From NCBI GenBank assembly GCA_036149055.1, contig JAYZQJ010000158.1:1-50457 (forward strand): a stretch of 50,457 nucleotides of DNA, read 5' to 3'. The translations under genes and the position numbers were made by a program. This DNA comes from Myxococcota bacterium. GTDB lineage: Bacteria > Myxococcota_A > Polyangia > Polyangiales > Sandaracinaceae. The first letter of the stretch is position 1; each line of letters starts with the position of its first letter. This document shows positions 7,672-22,654 of this stretch, piece by piece. The notes under the pieces were generated by a model that saw only the letters and a list, made by a program, of their open reading frames with translations, searched no databases and had not been told where the DNA came from.

Positions 7672-7695
7672 CGAAGCCCGCGCAGCCGGGCTTCG
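7672..7695 (+). terminator. Hairpin downstream of fabH
   Basis: CGAAGCCCG-N6-CGGGCTTCG perfect 9-bp stem; no U-tract. Confidence 0.4.
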
Positions 7696-7998
7696 TGCTC
7701 GCGCCCGCGCCCGCGCCCGCGCCCGCGCTCGTACTCGTGCTCGTACTCGTAGACGTGCACGTACACGTGCCCGTGCTCGAAGGACCTGCACGAGGACGTG
7801 CCACGAGGACGTGCACGTGCACGAGGACGTGCCACGAGGACGCGCACGAGGACGGGGAAGTGCACGAGGACGGGAACGTGCACGTGGACGTGGACGTGCA
7901 CGTACACGTGCCCGTTCTCGAAGGACCTGCACGAGGACGTGCACGAGGACGTGGACGAGGACGGGGACGTGCGCGAGGACGGGGATGTCACGTGCCCC
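7695..7998. repeat. Hexamer-phased (GnnnnC) palindromic repeat array
   Basis: Runs of GTGCAC/GAGGAC/GTACAC/GCGCCC. The 35 bp at 7746-7780 are identical to 20037-20071. Confidence 0.85.
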
Positions 7999-9532: not shown

Positions 9533-10840
9533 ATGCGCGCCCTCCTCATCGTCGTCACGTGGCTCGCGGCCACCTCGACCGCGGCCGCGCAGCTGGAGGT
9601 GGAGCTCGCCGATCCCGGCGCGCTGACGGTCGGCGATCGGGCCGAGGTCATCGCCTCGGTGCGCGGCGCGGCGAGCCACCCGCTGCTGTTGACCCCGCGC
9701 GCCGAGGGCACCGCGCTCGAGGTGGTGCGCGGCCGGCTGCTCCGGGCCGACGCGCGCGACCCCGACGCGTCGGTGCTCGAGCTGCGCATCCCGGTGGTCG
9801 CCCGGCGGGCGGGGACCTCGGTGCTCCGGGTGAGCGTCTCCGGCTACGCCTGCGAGGCGCGCTGCCGGCGGGTGGAGGCCACCGCCTCGCTCGTGGTGCG
9901 GGTGCGGCCGCAGGCGAGCCAGAAGCGCGCGAAGCAGGCCCGCTCCTCGTCGCTCGGGTGGGTGCGCCTGCCCGGCGCGGAGAGCTGCCTCGGGGCCGCC
10001 GCCCTCGCCCGGCGCGTCGAGGCGCGGCTGGGGCGCGACGTCTTCGTCTCCGCCGCCGACGCGGGGGTCAGCGTCGAGGGGCGGGCCGAGCGGACCGAAG
10101 GCGAGTGGCGCGCAGTGATCGCGGTGGAGGGCGACGGCGGCGAGGCGCTCGGCGAGCGCGCGCTGTCGAGCCGGGCGGAGTCCTGCGACGAGCTCGGCGA
10201 GATGGTGGTGACGGCGGTCGCGCTGACCATCGACCCGTTGACCGCGCCGGCGGAGCCCGCGCCGCCGCCCCGCGAGGTGGTGCGCACCGAGCGCGTCGAG
10301 GTCCCGGTGGAGGTCCCGGTCGAGGTGGAGGCCCCGCGCTGGCGGGTCGAGATCGACGCCAGCGGGGTCGGCGCGCTCGGGCTGACGCCGGGCCCCACGC
10401 TCGGCGGGCTGACCGCGGTCATCGTCGAGCCGCCGGGCTTCGTCCCGCTCGTGCTCGAGGGGGCGCTGCTCCCCTTCACCCGCGCCTCCGACGGCGCCCG
10501 CCACGCCGACTTCCTGCACGCCCACGCCGGCCTGCAGATCTGCCCGCTGGCGCTCCGGGACGAGGGGCTCGCGCTCCACGGCTGCGTCGGCGCCGACGCC
10601 GGCGCGGTCTTCGTCGTCGGCGGCGACGCGAACGTGACCGAGCGAGAGCGGGTGACCGGCTTCGGCCACGCCGCCCTCCGCGGGCACTGGGACGTGGTCG
10701 GCCCGCTCACCGTGCGCCTCGGCCTCCACCTGCTCGTGCCCTTCCGGCACGATCCGTTCGTGGCCGACGGCGTCGCCTTCTACCGACCGGACCCGATCGC
10801 GGGCTTCTTCGACCTCGGCGTCGGCGTGCATCTCGAGTGA
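9533..10840 (+). CDS. Secreted multi-domain protein with probable C-terminal outer-membrane beta-barrel, ECF-associated
   Basis: Signal peptide, Ig-like N-domain, SSLGWVRLPGAESC module and amphipathic beta-strand C-terminus ending GVGVHLE; directly upstream of the ECF sigma gene. Confidence 0.65.
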   Translation: MRALLIVVTWLAATSTAAAQLEVELADPGALTVGDRAEVIASVRGAASHPLLLTPRAEGTALEVVRGRLLRADARDPDASVLELRIPVVARRAGTSVLRVSVSGYACEARCRRVEATASLVVRVRPQASQKRAKQARSSSLGWVRLPGAESCLGAAALARRVEARLGRDVFVSAADAGVSVEGRAERTEGEWRAVIAVEGDGGEALGERALSSRAESCDELGEMVVTAVALTIDPLTAPAEPAPPPREVVRTERVEVPVEVPVEVEAPRWRVEIDASGVGALGLTPGPTLGGLTAVIVEPPGFVPLVLEGALLPFTRASDGARHADFLHAHAGLQICPLALRDEGLALHGCVGADAGAVFVVGGDANVTERERVTGFGHAALRGHWDVVGPLTVRLGLHLLVPFRHDPFVADGVAFYRPDPIAGFFDLGVGVHLE

Positions 10841-10875
10841 CGATCAGAACGAGCGGGCCCCACCTCCACACACCC
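10841..10875 (+). promoter_or_regulatory. Candidate ECF-sigma autoregulated promoter
   Basis: CGATCAGAACG...CCTCCACACACCC; 30/35 ungapped identity to 14433-14467. Confidence 0.65.
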
Positions 10876-10879
10876 CACG

Positions 10880-11404
10880 ATGCCGGCCGCCGCCCCCCGC
10901 GAGAGCTTCGCCGAGATCTTCCACGCCCACGCGCCCCGGGTGTGGCGGGCGCTGCGCCGGCTCGGCGTGCGCGAGGCCGACGTCGAGGATCTCTGCCAGG
11001 AGGTCTTCGTGGTGGTGCACCGCAAGCTCCCGACCTTCGAGGGCCGCTCCGCGCTCAGCACCTGGATCTACGGCATCTGCGTCCGCGTCGCCTCGGACCA
11101 CCGCAAGCGCGCCCACGTGCGGCGCGAGCGCCCCACCGACGAGGTCCCCGACGAGCGCCAGAGCGCGCCGCAGCTGAAGGAGCTCGAGCGCGTGCAGCTC
11201 CGCGCCCTGCTCGACGAGGCGCTCGAGCAACTCGACGACGACAAGCGCGCGGTCTTCGTGCTCTACGAGCTCGAGCAGCTCGAGATGCCGGAGATCGCGA
11301 CCGCCCTCGGCTGCCCGCTCCAGACCGCGTACTCCCGGCTCTACGCCGGCCGGAAGATCGTGCGCGCCCACGTGCTCGCCCAGACCGAAGGAGGCGCCCG
11401 ATGA
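10880..11404 (+). CDS. ECF-family RNA polymerase sigma factor
   Basis: Region 2 (DVEDLCQEVF...FEGRSALSTWIYGI) and region 4 (RAVFVLYELEQLEMPEIATALGCPLQTAYSRL). Confidence 0.92.
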   Translation: MPAAAPRESFAEIFHAHAPRVWRALRRLGVREADVEDLCQEVFVVVHRKLPTFEGRSALSTWIYGICVRVASDHRKRAHVRRERPTDEVPDERQSAPQLKELERVQLRALLDEALEQLDDDKRAVFVLYELEQLEMPEIATALGCPLQTAYSRLYAGRKIVRAHVLAQTEGGAR

Positions 11405-12306
11405 GCGACGCCCGCTGGCTCGACGATCCCGAGACCCCCGAGGCCCTCCGCGCCGCGCTCGAGGCCGGGCGCGCGGAGGCGCCGTCGGACGCGGAGCTCG
11501 CGCGCGTGGCGGCGAAGCTGGGGCCGCTGATGGGGCCCGGCGGCGGCGGCGGGGGTGCGGGCGGCGGGGGTGCGGGCGGCGGCATGGCCGCGGGGGGAGC
11601 GGCGAAGTTGATCGGCGCGGCGATGGCGGCGGCGGTGGCGATGGGAGGAGCCTGGTGGCTCGCCCAGCCCTCGCGCGAGGACGCGCCTTCCGTCGCCGCG
11701 TCCGAGTCCGAGTCCGAGTCCGAGTCCAAAGCCGAGCCCGGGCCCGAGCCCGAGTCCGAGCCCGAGCCCGAGTCCGAGTCCGAGTCCGAGTCCGAGTCCG
11801 AGTCCGAGTCCGAGTCCGAGTCCGAAGCCGAGTCCGAGCCCGAGCCCGAATCCGAAGCCGAGGCCGAAGCCGAGCCCGGACCCGCTGCCGCTCCCGCTCC
11901 CGGACCCGCTGCCGCTGCCGGACCCGCTGCCGCTCCCGCTCCCGCTGCCGCTGCCGCTGCCGCCGCCGCTCCCGCTGCCGCTCCCGGCCCCGCCGCCGCC
12001 GCCGCCGCAGCAGCCGCCCCCGACCCCGCCGCCGAGCTCCTCCTCATCCGCCGCGGCCAACGCGCCCTCCAAACCAACCCCGCCGCCGCCCTCTCCGCCG
12101 CCACCGAGCACGCCGCGCGCTTCGACGACACCCACGCCGTCTTCGCCCAGGAGCGCGAAGTGCTCGCCATCGACGCCCTCTCCCGCCTCGGCCGCGCCGA
12201 CGAGGCCGCCCGCCGCGCCGACCGGTTCCGGGCCCGGTGGCCGCGCTCGGCGCATCGACGGCGGGTCGACGTGATCGCGCCGCCGGACGAGCTCAGGGCG
12301 CCGTGA
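11401..12306 (+). CDS. Putative membrane anti-sigma factor
   Basis: ATGA overlap with the sigma gene. Short cytoplasmic helix domain, Gly linker, one TM ([16 protein letters not shown]), ES and PA repeats, and a C-terminal helical TPR-like domain ([12 protein letters not shown]...[13 protein letters not shown]...FRARWPRS). Confidence 0.75.
11701..12030 (+). repeat. Coding hexamer microsatellites (TCCGAG/CCCGAG, then CCCGCT/GCCGCT)
   Basis: Visible tandem 6-bp units encoding (ES/EP)n and (PA/AA)n. Confidence 0.85.
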
Positions 12307-13828
12307 CCGCCTCGTAGACCGAAGCGCGCGGCACGCCGGCCGCCACGCGGGCGCGCGCCTCGGCGAGCTCCGTGTCGACGCGCTGGGTGAACGCGGTGAG
12401 CGGCTGCGCGCCGGTGAGCACGTGGCCGTTGATGAAGAAGCTCGGGGTGCCGCGGGCGCCGAGCTGGGCCGCGAGCGCCTGATCCCGCGCGATCACGTCG
12501 CGGTGCCCCTCCGCGGCCAGCGCGGCGCGCACCCGGGCCCGGCTCGCGCCCACCTGCGCCGCGTACCGGACCAGATCCTCGTCCTCCAGGCTCCGCTGGT
12601 TCTCGAACAGCAGATCGTGCATCTGGAAGAACGCCGCGTCGCCCCGCTCCCGGTGCACCTCGATCGCCGCCCGTGCCGCCGGGGCCGCGCGCTGATGGAA
12701 CGGCAACGGGTTGTGCTTGAACACGATCCGGAGATCCGCACCGTAACGCTGGCGGAGCTGGGTCAGCGTCGGCACCACGCGCGAGCAGAACGGGCACTGG
12801 AAGTCGCTGAACACGACCACCGTGACCAGCGCGTCGTCGGGGCCGAGCCGCGGGCTGTCGAGCACCGGGACGCGATGGACCCCCTCGGGATCCGGACGGC
12901 TCGGGCGGGTCGGGGCCGCCGCCGGCTCGGGCGCGGGGCTCGTCCGGCCGTGCTCGACGATCCGGTCGTAGACCGCGGTCGGCGCCACCCCGGCGTCGCG
13001 CACCGACTGCGCGTAGGTCAGCTCCTCCCGCACGATCTCTCGGAAGCGCTCGATCGGCTGCGCGCCGCTCAGGAGGCGCCCGTTGATGAAGAAGGTCGGC
13101 GTGCCGCGCGCCCCGAGCTGACTCGCGAGCGCCTGGTCGGCGGAGATCGTCGCGTCGTGCGTCCGGCTGGCCGCCGCCCGATCCCAGGCCGCCGTGTCGA
13201 GCCCGGCCTGGACCGCGACGCTGCGCAGGGTCGTCGGCGCGCTCAGGTTGGACTGGTTGGCGAAGAGCGCGTCGTGCGTCCGCCAGAACGAGGCGTCCCC
13301 GCCCTGCGCGTAGGCCTCCGCCGCCAGCACCGCCGCGTCGCGCGCCTGCGCGTGCATCGGCAGCGGGTTGTGACGCCAGGCCACGCGGATGGTGCCGGGG
13401 TACTCGCTCTGCAGCTGGGTCAGCGTGCCGGCCGCGCGCGCGCAGTAGGGGCACTGGAACTCCCCGATCTCGACGATGGTCACCAGCGCGTCGGCGGGGC
13501 CCCGCGCCGGCGTCGTCGGCAGCACCGGCACCCGGAACCGCTCCCCCGCGTGCGGGTCCACCGGCATCGCGACCGGCGGCGGCGCCAGCTCCTCGAACGC
13601 CACCGGCGGAGGCGCGTCCTCCTCGAGGCCCACCATCCAGTACGCGCCGAGCGCCGCCGCCACGAACATCAGCAGCAGGCCGAAGCCGCCGCAGCCGAGG
13701 CCGAGCACCAGCCCCAGGCTCGGGCCCGACGTCTTCGGCGGCGCGGCCTGCGGCGCGGGCCACTGCTGCTGCGGCGCGTGAGAGTGCATCGCGATCGTCT
13801 GCGGCACCGGCCGCGGTCCCTGGTCCAT
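12293..13828 (-). CDS. Membrane-anchored tandem DsbA/thioredoxin-domain protein
   Basis: N-terminal TM. Two domains with FQCPYC and FQCPFC, each with GTP(T/S)FFING and GAQP. Confidence 0.88.
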   Translation of the reverse strand: MDQGPRPVPQTIAMHSHAPQQQWPAPQAAPPKTSGPSLGLVLGLGCGGFGLLLMFVAAALGAYWMVGLEEDAPPPVAFEELAPPPVAMPVDPHAGERFRVPVLPTTPARGPADALVTIVEIGEFQCPYCARAAGTLTQLQSEYPGTIRVAWRHNPLPMHAQARDAAVLAAEAYAQGGDASFWRTHDALFANQSNLSAPTTLRSVAVQAGLDTAAWDRAAASRTHDATISADQALASQLGARGTPTFFINGRLLSGAQPIERFREIVREELTYAQSVRDAGVAPTAVYDRIVEHGRTSPAPEPAAAPTRPSRPDPEGVHRVPVLDSPRLGPDDALVTVVVFSDFQCPFCSRVVPTLTQLRQRYGADLRIVFKHNPLPFHQRAAPAARAAIEVHRERGDAAFFQMHDLLFENQRSLEDEDLVRYAAQVGASRARVRAALAAEGHRDVIARDQALAAQLGARGTPSFFINGHVLTGAQPLTAFTQRVDTELAEARARVAAGVPRASVYEAVTAP

Positions 13829-13837
13829 CTCCCCCCC

Positions 13838-14374
13838 TTACGCGCCGCCCCCGCGCAGCTTCCTCAGCGCCTCGAGCGACATGCCGCGCAGCCGCTCCAC
13901 GTTGCGCCGCCAGATCGCGTCCGGATCCGGGTGCGCCGTCACCGCCTCCTCCACGCTCACCTCGCGCAGCAGGTGGAGCGTAGGGTACGGCGAGCGGTTG
14001 CTGAAGTTGGCGAGGTCACCCGGCGGCTCCCCGGCGAACCGGTAGTCGGGGTGGAAGCTCGCGACCTGCAGCGTGCCCTCGAGCCCGTGCGCGGCCACCA
14101 GCGCGTCGGCCACGCCGAGGAACGCGTTGAAGACGTCGAAGTCGGAGAGGCACGCGGTGCAGACCAGCAGCGTCGTCTCGCGCGTCTCGCGCGGGGCGGC
14201 CATCAGCGCGACGATCTCCGCGTCGAGCGCGGCCGCGACTCCGTCCTCGTCCGCCGCGTCGCAGCGCGCGAGGTGCACCACCCCGGCCTGCCAGGGCGTG
14301 CGCGCGAACGGGCAGAGCGCGAGGCCGAGCACCGCCTCTTCGATCCAGCGCGCGGTCTCCGCCAGCGGCTCCAT
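13838..14374 (-). CDS. DUF1415 family protein
   Basis: W.E..V.GL.LCPFA, ETTLLV, GTLQVASFHPDY.F and NRSPYPTLHLLRE.S; ATG 14374. Confidence 0.85.
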   Translation of the reverse strand: MEPLAETARWIEEAVLGLALCPFARTPWQAGVVHLARCDAADEDGVAAALDAEIVALMAAPRETRETTLLVCTACLSDFDVFNAFLGVADALVAAHGLEGTLQVASFHPDYRFAGEPPGDLANFSNRSPYPTLHLLREVSVEEAVTAHPDPDAIWRRNVERLRGMSLEALRKLRGGGA

Positions 14375-14432
14375 GCTCGGAACTCTGCGACGGTCGCGAT
14401 CCGTTCGCACGCGCGAGAAAAAAGTGCCGGGC

Positions 14433-14467
14433 CGATCAGAACGCGCGGCCGCCGCCTCCACGCACCC
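14433..14467 (+). promoter_or_regulatory. Candidate ECF target promoter
   Basis: Near copy of the motif upstream of the ECF gene, with an A-tract (GAGAAAAAAG) just upstream. Confidence 0.65.
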
Positions 14468-14470
14468 GGC

Positions 14471-15055
14471 ATGAGACATCCGCTCGCCTTCGCCGCCGCC
14501 CTGCTCGCTCTCTCCGCCGCGCCCGCCGCGGCCCAGGACGAGGGCTCTCCGTTCGACCGCGAATTCGCCGTCGCCGCGTACGCCACCGGGCACACCGGCA
14601 GCTATCACGCCGGCGGCGTCGGGGGGCGGCTCCGCTGGGAGCCCTTCGACTTCCTCGGGGTCGAGGCCTACCTCGAGGCCACCCTCGTCGACTGGCCGGG
14701 CGGGGGCCTCCGGCACGACTACCCGAACGGCTTCAACGTCTACGTCCCCATCCGCTTCGGGGACTTCCGGCTGCGGCCGTTCTTCGGCTTCTGCGACATC
14801 CTCAGCTTCGTCGAGCCGGAGCAGGAGGGCGCGCCGCGCGCCGACGACGTGCTCTTCGGCCTGCACGGCGGGATCGGCGCGGAGCTCGCGGTGCACCCGA
14901 TGTGGAGCGTCTTCGCCGACGCCCAGATCAACGCCTACTTCGGGCACGACCGCGCGGCGGAGGGCTGGACCGGCGGCGTCGACGAGGAGCTGTCGTTCTT
15001 CTGGAACGCGCAGCTGAACCTCGGCGTGCAGCTGCACTTCGGCGGCGTGCGGTGA
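14471..15055 (+). CDS. Small outer-membrane beta-barrel-like protein
   Basis: Signal peptide MRHPLAFAAALLALSAAPAAA, alternating aromatic beta-strands and C-terminal LNLGVQLHF. Confidence 0.65.
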   Translation: MRHPLAFAAALLALSAAPAAAQDEGSPFDREFAVAAYATGHTGSYHAGGVGGRLRWEPFDFLGVEAYLEATLVDWPGGGLRHDYPNGFNVYVPIRFGDFRLRPFFGFCDILSFVEPEQEGAPRADDVLFGLHGGIGAELAVHPMWSVFADAQINAYFGHDRAAEGWTGGVDEELSFFWNAQLNLGVQLHFGGVR

Positions 15056-16098
15056 GGGCGCTGCTGCTCCTCGCGCTCGTCGGATGCGCCCGCCCGGCCG
15101 GGCCGCCCCCCGAGACCCACGCCTCGGCGAGCTGCGCGAGCTGTCACGCCGATCACGGCGACGATCACGCGGCCTCGCCGCACGCGCGGGCCGCCGCCTC
15201 GCCCCTGCTCGCCGCGATGCTGCCGGAGGTCGAAGAGGCCTGGGGCTCGTTCGCGCGCGAGCGCTGCGAGGGCTGCCACTCGCCGGGCCACGGGCCGGAC
15301 GACGGCGTCGGGTGCGTGAGCTGCCACGCCGCGGTCGGCAACCACGGCACCTCCGACGGTCGGCTCGCGATCGATCTCGAGGCGCCGGTCGGCGGCCCGG
15401 GGGAGAGCCCGCACGCGCCCCACCCGGTCGCGGCGCGCGGCTTCCTGCGCGCGCCCGAGCTCTGCGGCACCTGCCACGAGCTGACCGGGCCGCGGCTCGC
15501 GGTGGAGCCGACGTTCACCGAGTTCCTCGCCTCGCCCCAGGCGGCCGAGGGCGCCACCTGCGCGAGCTGCCACATGCCCGCGCGCGAGGGCCGGCGCGAC
15601 CATCGCTTCGTCGGCTTCGATCCGCCCTGGGGCGCCGGGCCCGAGGAGGCGGCGCGGTCCGCGGACGACACGTTGGCGCTGCTGCAGGCGGCGCTCCGCC
15701 TCGACGTGCGCCGGGACGGAGACGCCCTCGAGATCGCGGTCACCAACGTCGGCGCCGGCCACGCGGTGCCGACCGGGGCGGCGTTCCTCCGCGATCTGTG
15801 GGTCGACGTGGAGGTCGGCGCGGAGGGCGGCGGCGGCGTCGTCGCTTCGCGCGTGATCACGCTCGGCGATCAGCCGATGCGCGGCGACCGACCGGTCCCG
15901 CTGCTCACCCGCGCCGACCGGGTGGAGCCGGGCTCGCTCCCGGCCGGAGCGACGCGCCGCGCGCGGATCGCGTGGCCTCGGCCGGAGCCCGCGTCCGTGG
16001 TCCTGCGCGGCCGCGCCGTCCGCCTCCCCGTGCTCGACGCGCTCGGGCTCCGGCGCCTCGAGCCCGAGCTGCCGGTGCACGAGATCGCCCGCCGGTAA
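15052..16098 (+). CDS. Multiheme (5 x CxxCH) cytochrome c lipoprotein
   Basis: GTG start overlapping the previous TGA. Lipobox LVG-C. CASCH, CEGCH, CVSCH, CGTCH and CASCHMP; NVGAGHAVPTG motif. Confidence 0.85.
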   Translation: MRALLLLALVGCARPAGPPPETHASASCASCHADHGDDHAASPHARAAASPLLAAMLPEVEEAWGSFARERCEGCHSPGHGPDDGVGCVSCHAAVGNHGTSDGRLAIDLEAPVGGPGESPHAPHPVAARGFLRAPELCGTCHELTGPRLAVEPTFTEFLASPQAAEGATCASCHMPAREGRRDHRFVGFDPPWGAGPEEAARSADDTLALLQAALRLDVRRDGDALEIAVTNVGAGHAVPTGAAFLRDLWVDVEVGAEGGGGVVASRVITLGDQPMRGDRPVPLLTRADRVEPGSLPAGATRRARIAWPRPEPASVVLRGRAVRLPVLDALGLRRLEPELPVHEIARR

Positions 16099-16130: not shown

Positions 16131-16491
16131 GTGGAGGAACCGGAAGACCTCGAGCTCTACGTCATGGAGGGCTGCGGCTGGTGCCAGGACGTGCGGGACG
16201 CGGCCGCGCGCCTCGACGTGCAGCTCGCCGAGCGCGACGTGCGACGCGATCCGGAGGCGCTCGCCGCGCTCCGCGAGGCCCGCGGGCGATCGACCGTGCC
16301 CGTGCTGCGCATCGCGCGCGGCGACGGCGTCGAGTGGATGCCATCACGCGCATATTCGCCGCGCGCTGCTCGAGGTCGCCGACATCCCGTGGTGGTGGGC
16401 CGCGTTCGCGATCGCCGCGGCGCTGGCCGGCCAGGCGCTGCGTCGACGGTTCTCGGCCCCCGGAGGGAAGCCCGAGCGCCCGCGACCGTAG
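16131..16491 (+). pseudogene. Glutaredoxin-like protein with C-terminal TM, frameshifted near 16341-16350
   Basis: LELYVMEGCGWC...GRSTVPVLRI...WMP in one frame. The continuation HIRRALLEVADIPWWWAAFAIAAALAGQALRRR...TAG lies in the +1 frame. The original frame has no stop until 18656. Confidence 0.65.
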
Positions 16492-19328: not shown

Positions 19329-20172
19329 CTCCGCACCGGTTCGGAGCATCGACCCGCGCTCGTAACGCCGAGCCCGGTCGCTCTTCCCTGCGCGCCCCGC
19401 CACCGAGGACGAGGACGCTTACGTGCACGAGGACGAGGACGTGCACGAGGACGAGTACGAGGACGAGTACGAGGACGTGCACGAAGACGTGCACGAGGAC
19501 GTGCACGAGGACGAGGACGTGCATGCGGTGGGCAACGTCCCTTTTCGCAGCCCAGCGAACTTCAGCATTTCGGGCTCCTGCGCGTCCCCGTCCTCGTAGA
19601 CGTGCTCGTCCTCGTAGACGTACACGTGGTCGTGCCCGTCCTCGTAGACGTGCACGTACACGTGACCGTGCTCGACGCGCTCCGCACCACTCGGAGCATC
19701 GACCCGCGCGGGCACGCGTAAGCCCGGGCGCGGTCGCTCTTCCCTGCGCGCCCCCTACCGAGGACGTGTACGTGGAACGTGGACGCCCACGTGCACGAGG
19801 ACGTGCACGGGGCGGGCAACGTCGCGCCATTCGCAGCCCAGCGACTTCAGCATTTCGCAGGATCGTCGCCGGGCCCGGGCTCGCCGACGTCGACTCCTCG
19901 AGCCCCGTCACCTCGGGCCGGCCGTGCTCGCGAATCCGGAGCCGGGCTCCTGCGCGTCCCCGTCCTCGTAGACGTGCTCGTCCTCGTAGACGTGCACGTA
20001 CACGTGCTCGTGCCCGTCCTCGTAGACGTGCCCGTCCTCGTAGACGTGCACGTACACGTGCCCGTGCTCGACGCGCTCCGCACCACTCGGAGCATCGCCC
20101 CGCGCGGGCACGCGTGAGCCCGAGTCCGGTCGCTCTTCCCTGCGCGCCCCCGCCACCGCGGACGAGGACGCT
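19329..20172. repeat. Composite tandem repeat: three ~90-bp cores separated by inverted hexamer arrays
   Basis: Core CTCCGCACC..TCGGAGCATCG...CGGTCGCTCTTCCCTGCGCGCCCC at about 19329, 19680 and 20076. Confidence 0.85.
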
Positions 20173-21625: not shown

Positions 21626-22654
21626 ATGGCCCGCCCGGTGAAGGTCCAGAACCCGCCGAACCCGTTCGAGAGCGCGCACGTGGAGTGGGAGGGGCCTCCG
21701 CCGGACGCGGCGCTCGAGGTCTTCGAGGAGCGGGCGAAGTCGATCGTCAGCGAGAACTCCAGCCCGGACGTGGGGTTCCGCTACAGCGTCAACCCGTACC
21801 GGGGCTGCTTCCACGGCTGCCTGTACTGCTACGCGCGACCGAGTCACCAGTACCTCGACTTCGGCGCGGGCACGGACTTCGACCGCAAGATCGTGGTGAA
21901 GGTCAACGCGCCGGAGCTGCTCGACCGGCGCATCCGGCGGCCGAGCTGGACCTTCGAGCCGATCGCGTTCAGCGGGAACACCGACTGCTACCAGCCGCTC
22001 GAGGCGAGCTACGGGCTCACCCGCCGCTGCCTCGAGGTCTGCCTCGCGCACGGCACGCCGGTCGGGGTCATCACCAAGGGCACGATGATCCGGCGCGACG
22101 TCGCGCTCCTCGCCGAGCTCCACCGTCGCGCCGGCGCGCGGGTGTCGATCAGCCAGGCGTTCGCCCGCGACGAGGATCGCCGGGTCTTCGATCCGTGGGC
22201 GCCCCCGGTCGAGGCGCGGTTCGAGACCATGCGCCAGCTGGCCGACGCGGGCATCCCGGTCGGGGTGGCGGTCTCGCCGATCATCCCCGGGGTCAACGAC
22301 AGCCAGATCCCCGAGGTCCTCGCGCGGGCCAAGGAGGCCGGGGCGCGGCACGCCTTCATGACCCTGCTGCGCCTCCCTCGGGAGGTGAAGCCGTGGTTCG
22401 AGGTCCGGGTCGAGGCCCTGGTGCCCGGCCGCGCCAAGAAGGTGAAGAACGGGATCCGCGAGCTGCGGGGCGGAGCCGACGCGAACGACGCGCGCTTCCA
22501 TCACCGCATGAGAGGCCAGGGCGCGCGCTGGGACGCCATCACCCAGCTCTTCGAGATGCACTTACGGAAGCTCGGCCTGAACACCGAAGACGTCGTCGCC
22601 GATCTCGGCCCGCCCCCCGAGCGCCGGCGCCGCGGTCAGCTCGACCTGTTCTGA
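21626..22654 (+). CDS. Radical SAM protein, PA0069/Rv2578c (SplB-like) family
   Basis: NPYRGCFHGCLYCYARPSHQYL..G.G.DF..KI.VK.NAPELL; NTDCYQPLE; C-terminal QLDLF. Confidence 0.9.
   Translation: MARPVKVQNPPNPFESAHVEWEGPPPDAALEVFEERAKSIVSENSSPDVGFRYSVNPYRGCFHGCLYCYARPSHQYLDFGAGTDFDRKIVVKVNAPELLDRRIRRPSWTFEPIAFSGNTDCYQPLEASYGLTRRCLEVCLAHGTPVGVITKGTMIRRDVALLAELHRRAGARVSISQAFARDEDRRVFDPWAPPVEARFETMRQLADAGIPVGVAVSPIIPGVNDSQIPEVLARAKEAGARHAFMTLLRLPREVKPWFEVRVEALVPGRAKKVKNGIRELRGGADANDARFHHRMRGQGARWDAITQLFEMHLRKLGLNTEDVVADLGPPPERRRRGQLDLF

Follow-up and report, generated by a model that had tools for sequence, protein, structure and literature searches.

A shared two-box promoter candidate joining an ECF sigma factor to an outer-membrane barrel and pentaheme cytochrome operon in Sandaracinaceae

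Why would two operons of a myxobacterial genome, set apart by two genes on the opposite strand, carry nearly the same 35 nucleotides directly ahead of their start codons? The locus lies in a 50,457-nucleotide stretch of a Sandaracinaceae genome (contig JAYZQJ010000158.1, assembly GCA_036149055.1; hereafter the window, to which coordinates refer unless a contig is named), where one copy of the repeat (10841-10875) precedes the gene of an extracytoplasmic function (ECF) sigma factor and the other (14433-14467) precedes the gene of an outer-membrane β-barrel, itself followed by that of a pentaheme c-type cytochrome. A preliminary description of this DNA had proposed that the repeat is a shared promoter through which the sigma factor controls both operons. 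From comparisons across 61 searched genomes (G000, our own; G001 onward, those of relatives), we find that a two-box signal within the repeat is very probably a promoter read by the adjacent ECF sigma, driving the sigma's own operon and the barrel-pentaheme operon from near-leaderless starts.

The repeat and the boxes conserved within it

Aligned without gaps, the two copies agree at 30 of 35 positions, and they begin 39 nucleotides ahead of the sigma ATG (10880) and 38 ahead of the barrel ATG (14471), neither of which has a Shine-Dalgarno (SD) sequence, all as first described; profile and motif searches likewise uphold the gene identities given then, i.e., an ECF sigma, a barrel (matched by OMP_b-brl), and a pentaheme cytochrome (five CxxCH motifs). 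Such a match could be a local duplication or a dispersed repeat of no regulatory role, and the agreement of 12 of 16 spacer positions, the most among the 24 genomes holding both promoters, speaks for that account. The full 30/35 identity is also the highest of the 24 (others 15-28), and the spacer likeness is therefore not a conserved feature. The window itself contains 86 pairs with at least 30/35 identity, and none of 20 third-order Markov simulations of it gave any. Most of these pairs fall in low-complexity arrays (near 7.5 kb, 11.5 kb, 19-20 kb, and 46 kb); a further three are intragenic (8.5/9 kb, 12/13 kb, and 33 kb), and one is the sigma/barrel promoter pair. Low-complexity repeats common to 7680-7990 and 19400-20150, with HVHVHV and TCTCTS translations, account for many of the long pairs.

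Within the repeat, matrices trained separately on barrel and sigma upstreams converge on TCAGAA-N16-CCACNCA with an uninformative spacer; our own genome was kept out of the training sets, its site having served only to seed the motif search. Promoter copy 1 (10844..10872, + strand) has a -35 box TCAGAA at 10844-10849, a 16-nucleotide spacer, and a -10 box CCACACA at 10866-10872, with a predicted start at about 10877-10880. Copy 2 (14436..14464, + strand) has TCAGAA at 14436-14441, again a 16-nucleotide spacer, and CCACGCA at 14458-14464, with the ATG 6 nucleotides on and the transcript predicted to be leaderless. The conserved -10 box is thus longer than the one originally noted (CTCCAC) and lies one base further on.

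Each matrix was then scored on the other gene's upstreams against the 99th percentile of a null of 3,000 random segments (200 bases for the sigma, 260 bases for the barrel). The barrel-trained matrix recovers 26 of 28 sigma upstreams, a count from which G013, G037, and G057 were excluded beforehand, their sigma hits having been judged not to be orthologs, and the sigma-trained matrix recovers 27 of 31 barrel upstreams (G023 among them). In both genomes missed on the sigma side (G012 and G030), the gene order is barrel-cytochrome-upstream gene-sigma; the sigma there has moved to the end of the barrel operon and lost its own copy, one barrel promoter covering all. On the barrel side, one missed segment is truncated at the edge of a contig but still shows the boxes (G020), one site lies just outside the scanned segment at 22.5 bits (G054), and two upstreams lack the motif in genomes that also lack a close sigma (G043 and G047; best match 48% identity). 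The motif is also absent (best 13.7 bits) from 11 further distant barrel loci without such a sigma nearby. Where sigma and barrel genes are divergent (G007 and G028), two copies of the motif stand back to back, one per gene on its own strand.

Of the 8,092 gene upstreams in our own genome, copies 1 and 2 score highest and second highest, at 28.7 and 27.2 bits (the next reaches 19.4), and exact matches to a 30-position consensus are confined to these two copies in the 9.89-Mb genome (73% GC), the next-best matches having 8 mismatches. In 433,706 bases of relatives' loci, all 52 sites above 14 bits lie ahead of a sigma or barrel gene; as the matrix was trained on these same sites, only the absence of sites elsewhere is informative. 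Identity between the two promoters of a genome is 0.88 in the boxes and 0.48 in the spacer, and many genera have conserved the boxes but not the spacers, the motif invariably sharing the strand of the gene and standing at start-codon distance from it. With only two copies in 9.9 Mb and no match in an Rfam search of the window, a duplication or dispersed repeat devoid of function is largely refuted by the cross-validation, the locus scan, and the box-versus-spacer identities, and we regard it as extremely improbable. Two stretches elsewhere in our genome, C14:98153 (-) and C186:44455 (+), reach ~17 bits; both resemble cobalamin riboswitches, and we read their scores as a chance spacing match and as a trap for genome scans using this motif.

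Leader lengths agree with the near-leaderless starts first suggested. Barrel leaders are 5-6 nucleotides without an SD sequence in 8 of 27 cases, 17-36 nucleotides with one in 18, and 15 nucleotides without one in G023; sigma leaders are 5-10 nucleotides without an SD sequence in 18 of 26. Transcription starting ~5-7 nucleotides past the -10 box would yield this bimodal pattern.

The regulon first proposed is well supported and appears slightly larger than described. An exact-pattern scan of the 61 genomes gave extra sites, 20 of which were fetched: five lie ahead of members of one lipoprotein family in which eight Cys are conserved, two ahead of a second lipoprotein family, one ahead of a RoxA-like diheme cytochrome (PF21419), one ahead of a barrel-like gene, and two ahead of other Cys-rich lipoproteins, with the rest looking like chance. 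The eight-Cys lipoprotein occurs in 24 of the 61 genomes and has weak lipocalin-like structure matches (TM scores of 0.45-0.53, under our bar for naming). At 19 further loci of it for which upstream sequence exists, scanned over a 600-base window against a 300-base null, eight exceed the 99th percentile (one borderline), three keep the spacing but with TCGTGAC as an altered -35, and eight have nothing. This disulfide-rich, lipocalin-like lipoprotein is thus the predicted third target in many relatives. It was not found in our own genome at E ≤ 1e-20, for which reason the supported regulon there comprises two operons; the distant homologs present there of the lipocalin-like target (C217 and C133) and of the RoxA-like target (C4) have no motif.

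Two other sites in our genome were not accepted as targets. The site ahead of a REC-GGDEF diguanylate cyclase gene (C262:24629, - strand; L116) scores 19.4 bits with a -10 of CCCCTCA, i.e., with C at the invariant A; its boxes are kept, with a changed spacer, in G001 only, and it is absent from four other orthologs. In three other orthologs of that gene, the words TATCAGA or GTCAGA ... TCAAG occur with a spacing that varies and may form the site of another regulator. The second site, at 15.8 bits, precedes a ZinT-like lipoprotein gene (C69:70312-70896; L110; PF09223, E 0.007), which has an 18-nucleotide SD leader and no ortholog in 60 relatives; it is oriented divergently from a gene that, by its sequence, probably encodes an AraC-type regulator.

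The sigma factor and its surroundings

The sigma gene (10880..11404, + strand) encodes 174 amino acids with the build of an ECF factor, i.e., regions 2 and 4 only (PF04542 and PF08281; TIGR02937 at 89 bits against a cutoff of 42.9). Overlapping its stop codon is the gene of a putative single-pass anti-sigma factor (11401..12306, + strand), a role assigned from position and topology. The protein has a conserved N-terminal helical domain, a Gly-rich stretch, one hydrophobic segment, a Pro/Glu linker, and a C-terminal tetratricopeptide-repeat (TPR)-like domain (weak TPR_14 and TPR_16 matches, each in 3 of 19 members), and this architecture is preserved across 21 aligned orthologs. The linker coded in the window (11690-12030) is a long hexanucleotide-type array of ES/EP and Ala-rich repeats, far longer than in most orthologs. 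A sigma is found at E ≤ 1e-45 in 34 of the 61 genomes (a tally that includes paralogs) and the barrel in 32, among them 25 of the 31 others of the family; a close sigma and the barrel occur together in 28 genomes, in 22 of which they lie at most 10 kb apart on one contig.

That the adjacent sigma would be the reader of the motif is indicated by footprinting, cross-validation, the natural rearrangements above, and sigma-promoter covariation. In one clade (G007, G016, G021, G031, G025, and G028), the loop of sigma region 2 is rewritten and the -10 box reads CCACTG[TC] in both promoters in four of the six genomes; in another (G006, G015, G020, G024, G027, and G029), a Gln-to-Met change in the region-4 helix is found alongside CAAA-type -35 boxes. 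A paralog on C81 of our own genome keeps the region-4 helix together with a TCAAAA -35 box and has GAACGAA as its -10. The boxes vary in step with regions 2 and 4 of the sigma, which is consistent evidence and not a statistic.

A rival account accepts the promoter but assigns its reading chiefly to a paralog, or to a number of sigmas from this myxobacterial group, which would make the adjacent sigma a target and not the master. Our genome has at least five similar sigmas, several with look-alike -35 boxes upstream, and the sister sigmas of G013 and G037 carry the motif without the barrel (16.0 and 14.2 bits; the third left-out sigma, of G057, scores -3.2), such that related sigmas may read the same motif. 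Moreover, G018 (82% complete) and G023 (1,290 contigs) have the barrel motif with no close sigma found, and the tree leaves orthologs and some sister sigmas in one open node. These points count against the adjacent sigma as sole master, as does the nature of the covariation, each case being a single event on the tree among kin that are not independent; the promoter itself is supported by sequence comparison, with predicted start positions read off the boxes, and RNA contigs (two runs of one seawater study, contigs only) extend over intergenic DNA too and so mark neither a start nor expression. Against the rival, the five paralogs of our own genome score at most 8.1 bits with different -10 boxes or spacing, the -10 and -35 changes follow regions 2 and 4 of this very sigma, and G018 and G023 are fragmented assemblies. 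We therefore hold control by a paralog to be improbable and retain the adjacent sigma as the reader. The unpublished genome G023 supplies one barrel count with its motif site, one motif-negative lipoprotein locus, and two paralog tree rows, and our conclusions stand without these entries.

Directly ahead of the sigma lies the gene of an exported protein (9533..10840, + strand), a candidate signal input for the anti-sigma factor, with a signal peptide, one or more Cys-containing periplasmic domains, a Pro linker, and a C-terminal β-rich domain whose end resembles an outer-membrane barrel; Pfam and PDB searches gave no informative match. Being upstream of promoter copy 1, the gene is not driven by it here. 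Its family has 19 members in 19 loci (the window counted), usually directly ahead of the sigma, and a similar gene, judged from layout and sequence ends, precedes four of the five closest sigma paralogs in our genome. Paralog cassettes on C175, C224, C116, and C182 (L111-L114) repeat this layout of an exported barrel-like gene, an ECF sigma, and an anti-sigma with a TPR tail, and in each a short spacer contains a candidate promoter of its own, a pattern pointing to a family of trans-envelope signalling modules insulated from one another.

The two opposite-strand genes between the operons encode a two-domain DsbA-like thioredoxin protein (12293..13828, - strand; PF01323 and PF13462) and a DUF1415 protein (13838..14374, - strand; PF07209). 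The former stands at the same place in 1 of 30 relative loci and the latter is present in 2 of 30; from this distribution, both read as lineage-specific insertions, and the DsbA-like protein is not part of the module.

The barrel, the cytochrome, and their candidate function

The barrel gene (14471..15055, + strand) encodes 194 amino acids, which an AlphaFold2 model (mean predicted local distance difference test [pLDDT] of 92.8) and alignments cast as an 8-stranded barrel of the OmpA/OmpW/NspA fold. Fold matches reach Z 17-18.4 with root-mean-square deviations (rmsd) of 2.1-2.9 Å, the OmpA, OmpW, NspA, and PagL barrels scoring Z 14.6-18.4; by sequence, OMP_b-brl (PF13505) matches at E 2e-5, below the gathering score, and the barrel profile has no match in the PDB. 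The family is small, with 95 representatives among 1.84 billion. In a 107-sequence alignment, Cys108, Asp83, Arg81, and many Gly are invariant and His132 and His82 nearly so, and among 68 distant representatives Cys108 is kept in 65, Asp83 in 61, Asp126 in 59, and His132 in 49. From the strand register, we infer that Cys108 and His132 are neighbours pointing into a lumen lined with Gly.

The cytochrome gene (15052..16098, + strand) shares four nucleotides (GTGA) with the end of the barrel gene, to which it is translationally coupled, and encodes a pentaheme c-type lipoprotein with a C-terminal immunoglobulin (Ig)-like domain and the fold of MccSep, ExtKL, and T. tepidum c552. Its model (pLDDT 94.4) superposes on T. 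tepidum pentaheme c552 (5ZE8) with Z 25.0 and an rmsd of 3.2 Å over 303 residues, and its profile matches both 5ZE8 and MccSep at about 1e-10 (MccSep E 4e-10). Five CxxCH motifs occur in 100 of 101 homologs, with the features of the PHC pentaheme and Ig structural family, and four candidate distal His (44, 124, 184, and 237) are conserved. Glu152 (codon 15505-15507), in the register of a C-x-T motif, is kept in 101/101 close and 6/6 distant homologs; in 5ZE8, the Cys of L-C-Q-T, which we take to ligate a heme, aligns with it. Heme motifs 4 and 5 of the window cytochrome are separated by a stretch free of Cys, and the position of the MccSep selenocysteine, Sec325, holds Ala in 54, Val in 41, Ile in 3, and Met in 2 of the 101 homologs, the window protein having neither Sec nor Cys there. 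With Glu152 for Cys and neither residue at 325, the cytochrome belongs to the MccSep fold family but falls outside the MccSep enzyme family. A second pentaheme relative in our genome (717 amino acids; C272:28611-30764, - strand) has no adjacent barrel of this family.

NCBI labels the homologs of both proteins Sandaracinaceae. Phylum-wide, the barrel is found in 13 of 251 genomes; 12 distant barrel loci retain a Glu-type cytochrome in six cases and lack it in six, and in none of the 12 does a motif score exceed 14 bits or this sigma lie close by. As the pair exists there without motif or sigma, it is probably older than its control by this sigma. Directly after the cytochrome in the window is a glutaredoxin-like gene (CGWC; 16132-16491), which seems internally deleted and frameshifted relative to an intact 190-amino-acid glutaredoxin-membrane fusion in G001. 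A radical SAM gene family (window 21626-22654) is found close to the cytochrome at 12 loci of relatives; at five loci of one genus it follows the cytochrome immediately on the same strand (8-131 nucleotides) and may be co-transcribed there.

Taken together, these parts would form the following circuit. The upstream exported protein would relay a surface cue to the TPR-like domain of the single-pass anti-sigma, which would otherwise hold the sigma; the sigma would then switch on the sigma/anti-sigma operon and the barrel plus pentaheme-cytochrome operon. The membrane-anchored cytochrome would act as a small-molecule reductase in which four bis-His hemes store electrons and heme 2, capped by Glu in place of Cys, provides the catalytic centre for oxidants like peroxide or nitric oxide, and the Gly-lined barrel, with its luminal Cys/His pair, would capture or admit a substrate or metal. 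The regulatory logic is that of a textbook ECF circuit and is ordinary; the earlier label of an envelope or redox response is an interpretation of what the circuit may serve. This account of the output side is a tentative one, to which we give somewhat less than an even chance. An open-site heme c with a distal Glu is found in bacterial diheme peroxidases, and it is this resemblance that favours oxidant reduction, albeit at modest odds. Several points tell against the account: the Glu-for-Cys exchange is drawn from sequence register (C-x-T versus E-x-T), and HMMER's alignment to MccSep is gapped in the Glu152 region; the proposed role in oxidant detoxification comes by analogy, and the Cys108-His132 neighbourhood from strand register; and the barrel has no cytochrome partner in 6 of the 12 distant genomes.

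The same regulon could instead serve uptake of a metal or small hydrophobic ligand by barrel and lipocalin-like lipoproteins, with the cytochrome as an accessory reductase mobilising the ligand. The OmpW/AlkL-type fold matches, the conserved Cys, His, and Asp of the barrel, the lipocalin-like matches of the third target, and the site ahead of the ZinT-like gene all point this way, but those lipocalin matches stay under the naming bar, the ZinT-like gene is without ortholog among relatives and lies divergent to the probable AraC-type regulator, and the gene families inspected at the loci include no recurring TonB or ABC uptake genes. Uptake is thus possible but unlikely.

Extracellular electron transfer through a porin-cytochrome conduit, like MtrAB or the proposed PtdAB and ExtI/ExtKL, would be a third output. 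MtrB-type conduits have about 26 strands and enclose their cytochrome; with 8 strands, this barrel does not belong among them and is likely too narrow for an Mtr-type conduit. It also occurs without the cytochrome in half of the 12 distant genomes. Speaking for a conduit, barrel and cytochrome genes are adjacent, in that order, in 30 of 30 close loci, and related pentaheme proteins are reported to adjoin porin genes (bioRxiv 10.1101/2023.11.21.568154; PMC11976967). A complex prediction for cytochrome and barrel scored 0.00 and was used neither for nor against binding. A conduit thus seems improbable here, and a reductase cytochrome remains our preferred, if tentative, output.

More speculatively, the cassette of exported barrel-domain protein, TPR anti-sigma, and ECF sigma could be a widespread myxobacterial means of signalling at the surface without TonB, the -10 boxes keeping the paralogs insulated. 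The member studied here would then control a new kind of redox enzyme at the outer membrane, in which a pentaheme of MccSep fold has Glu capping its catalytic heme and is served by the 8-stranded barrel, whose luminal Cys-His pair would itself be catalytic or metal/heme-binding; taken as a whole, this extension is rather doubtful.

Comparison with known systems

Polyangia-type myxobacteria have dozens of ECF sigmas, and the group that fits best by taxon was left unanalysed in the ECF classification for too few genomes; one such sigma now has its promoter sequence defined, along with a regulon and a proposed recognition code. Literature searches, with subscription papers largely outside their reach, returned no description of this promoter, this regulon, or the Glu-type cytochrome variant.

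Like canonical autoregulated ECF regulons as presented by Casas-Pastor et al. 2021 (PMC7826278), the system has a (putative) single-pass anti-sigma at +1, a bipartite motif upstream of the sigma's own gene (26/28), and nearby targets; the string TCAGAA has no match in the text of that paper's supplement seen by us, of which Table S2 may hold the motif. Candidate group ECF210 (Sorangium, Sandaracinus, and Chondromyces), described there as having non-conserved promoters and too few genomes, fits by taxonomy only, through the Sandaracinaceae labels of the homologs. The best NCBIfam match of the sigma is NF009171, at 105 bits against a cutoff of 208. Three other groups were rejected. ECF25 has a GGAAC / GTC promoter and an anti-sigma with a zinc finger, DUF4384, or DUF4349, whereas the -10 here is CCACNCA and none of those domains was found in the anti-sigma; ECF54 (GTATCAG / CTCC; Actinobacteria) has partly similar boxes but differs in taxon and context (CHAT/subtilase, no anti-sigma). 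ECF32, the HrpL group, shares only the -10 box and has an hrp/type III secretion context without autoregulation or anti-sigma, in contrast to the anti-sigma and autoregulatory motif seen here. The published HrpL promoter, GGAAC-N16-17-CCACNNA, has the same -10 box, which indicates that an ECF can read a CCACNNA-type -10, and a similar AAC-containing -35 region where the core here is TCAGAA; HrpL itself lacks an anti-sigma of this kind, is not autoregulated, stands under sigma54 and two-component systems, and drives type III secretion (PMC4149516).

On the output side, the barrel shares its fold with OmpA, OmpW, NspA, and PagL and forms a separate, small family with a near-invariant Cys. The cytochrome resembles T. 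tepidum c552, PtdA, and the cable-bacteria PHC family over its whole length, and the portion of the literature covered reports no ECF control of any of these. MccSep/ExtKL, the polysulfide reductase of Geobacter, shares five CxxCH motifs, an N-terminal heme cap, a C-terminal Ig-like stem, and a GHxxPxG loop; its report describes four bis-His hemes, a His/Cys239-ligated heme 2, and Sec325 beside heme 2 (PMC13510729). Here, by comparison, Glu152 takes the place of the strictly conserved heme-2 ligand C239 and Ala or Val that of Sec325, the equivalents of R83 and K372 are not conserved (as read from the profile alignment), and the protein is a lipoprotein where MccSep is soluble and periplasmic. 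MccSep, the only enzymatically defined member of the fold in the literature covered, uses Cys/Sec chemistry; because the variant described here would be Glu-capped, a different reaction is expected of it, probably in an aerobic setting.

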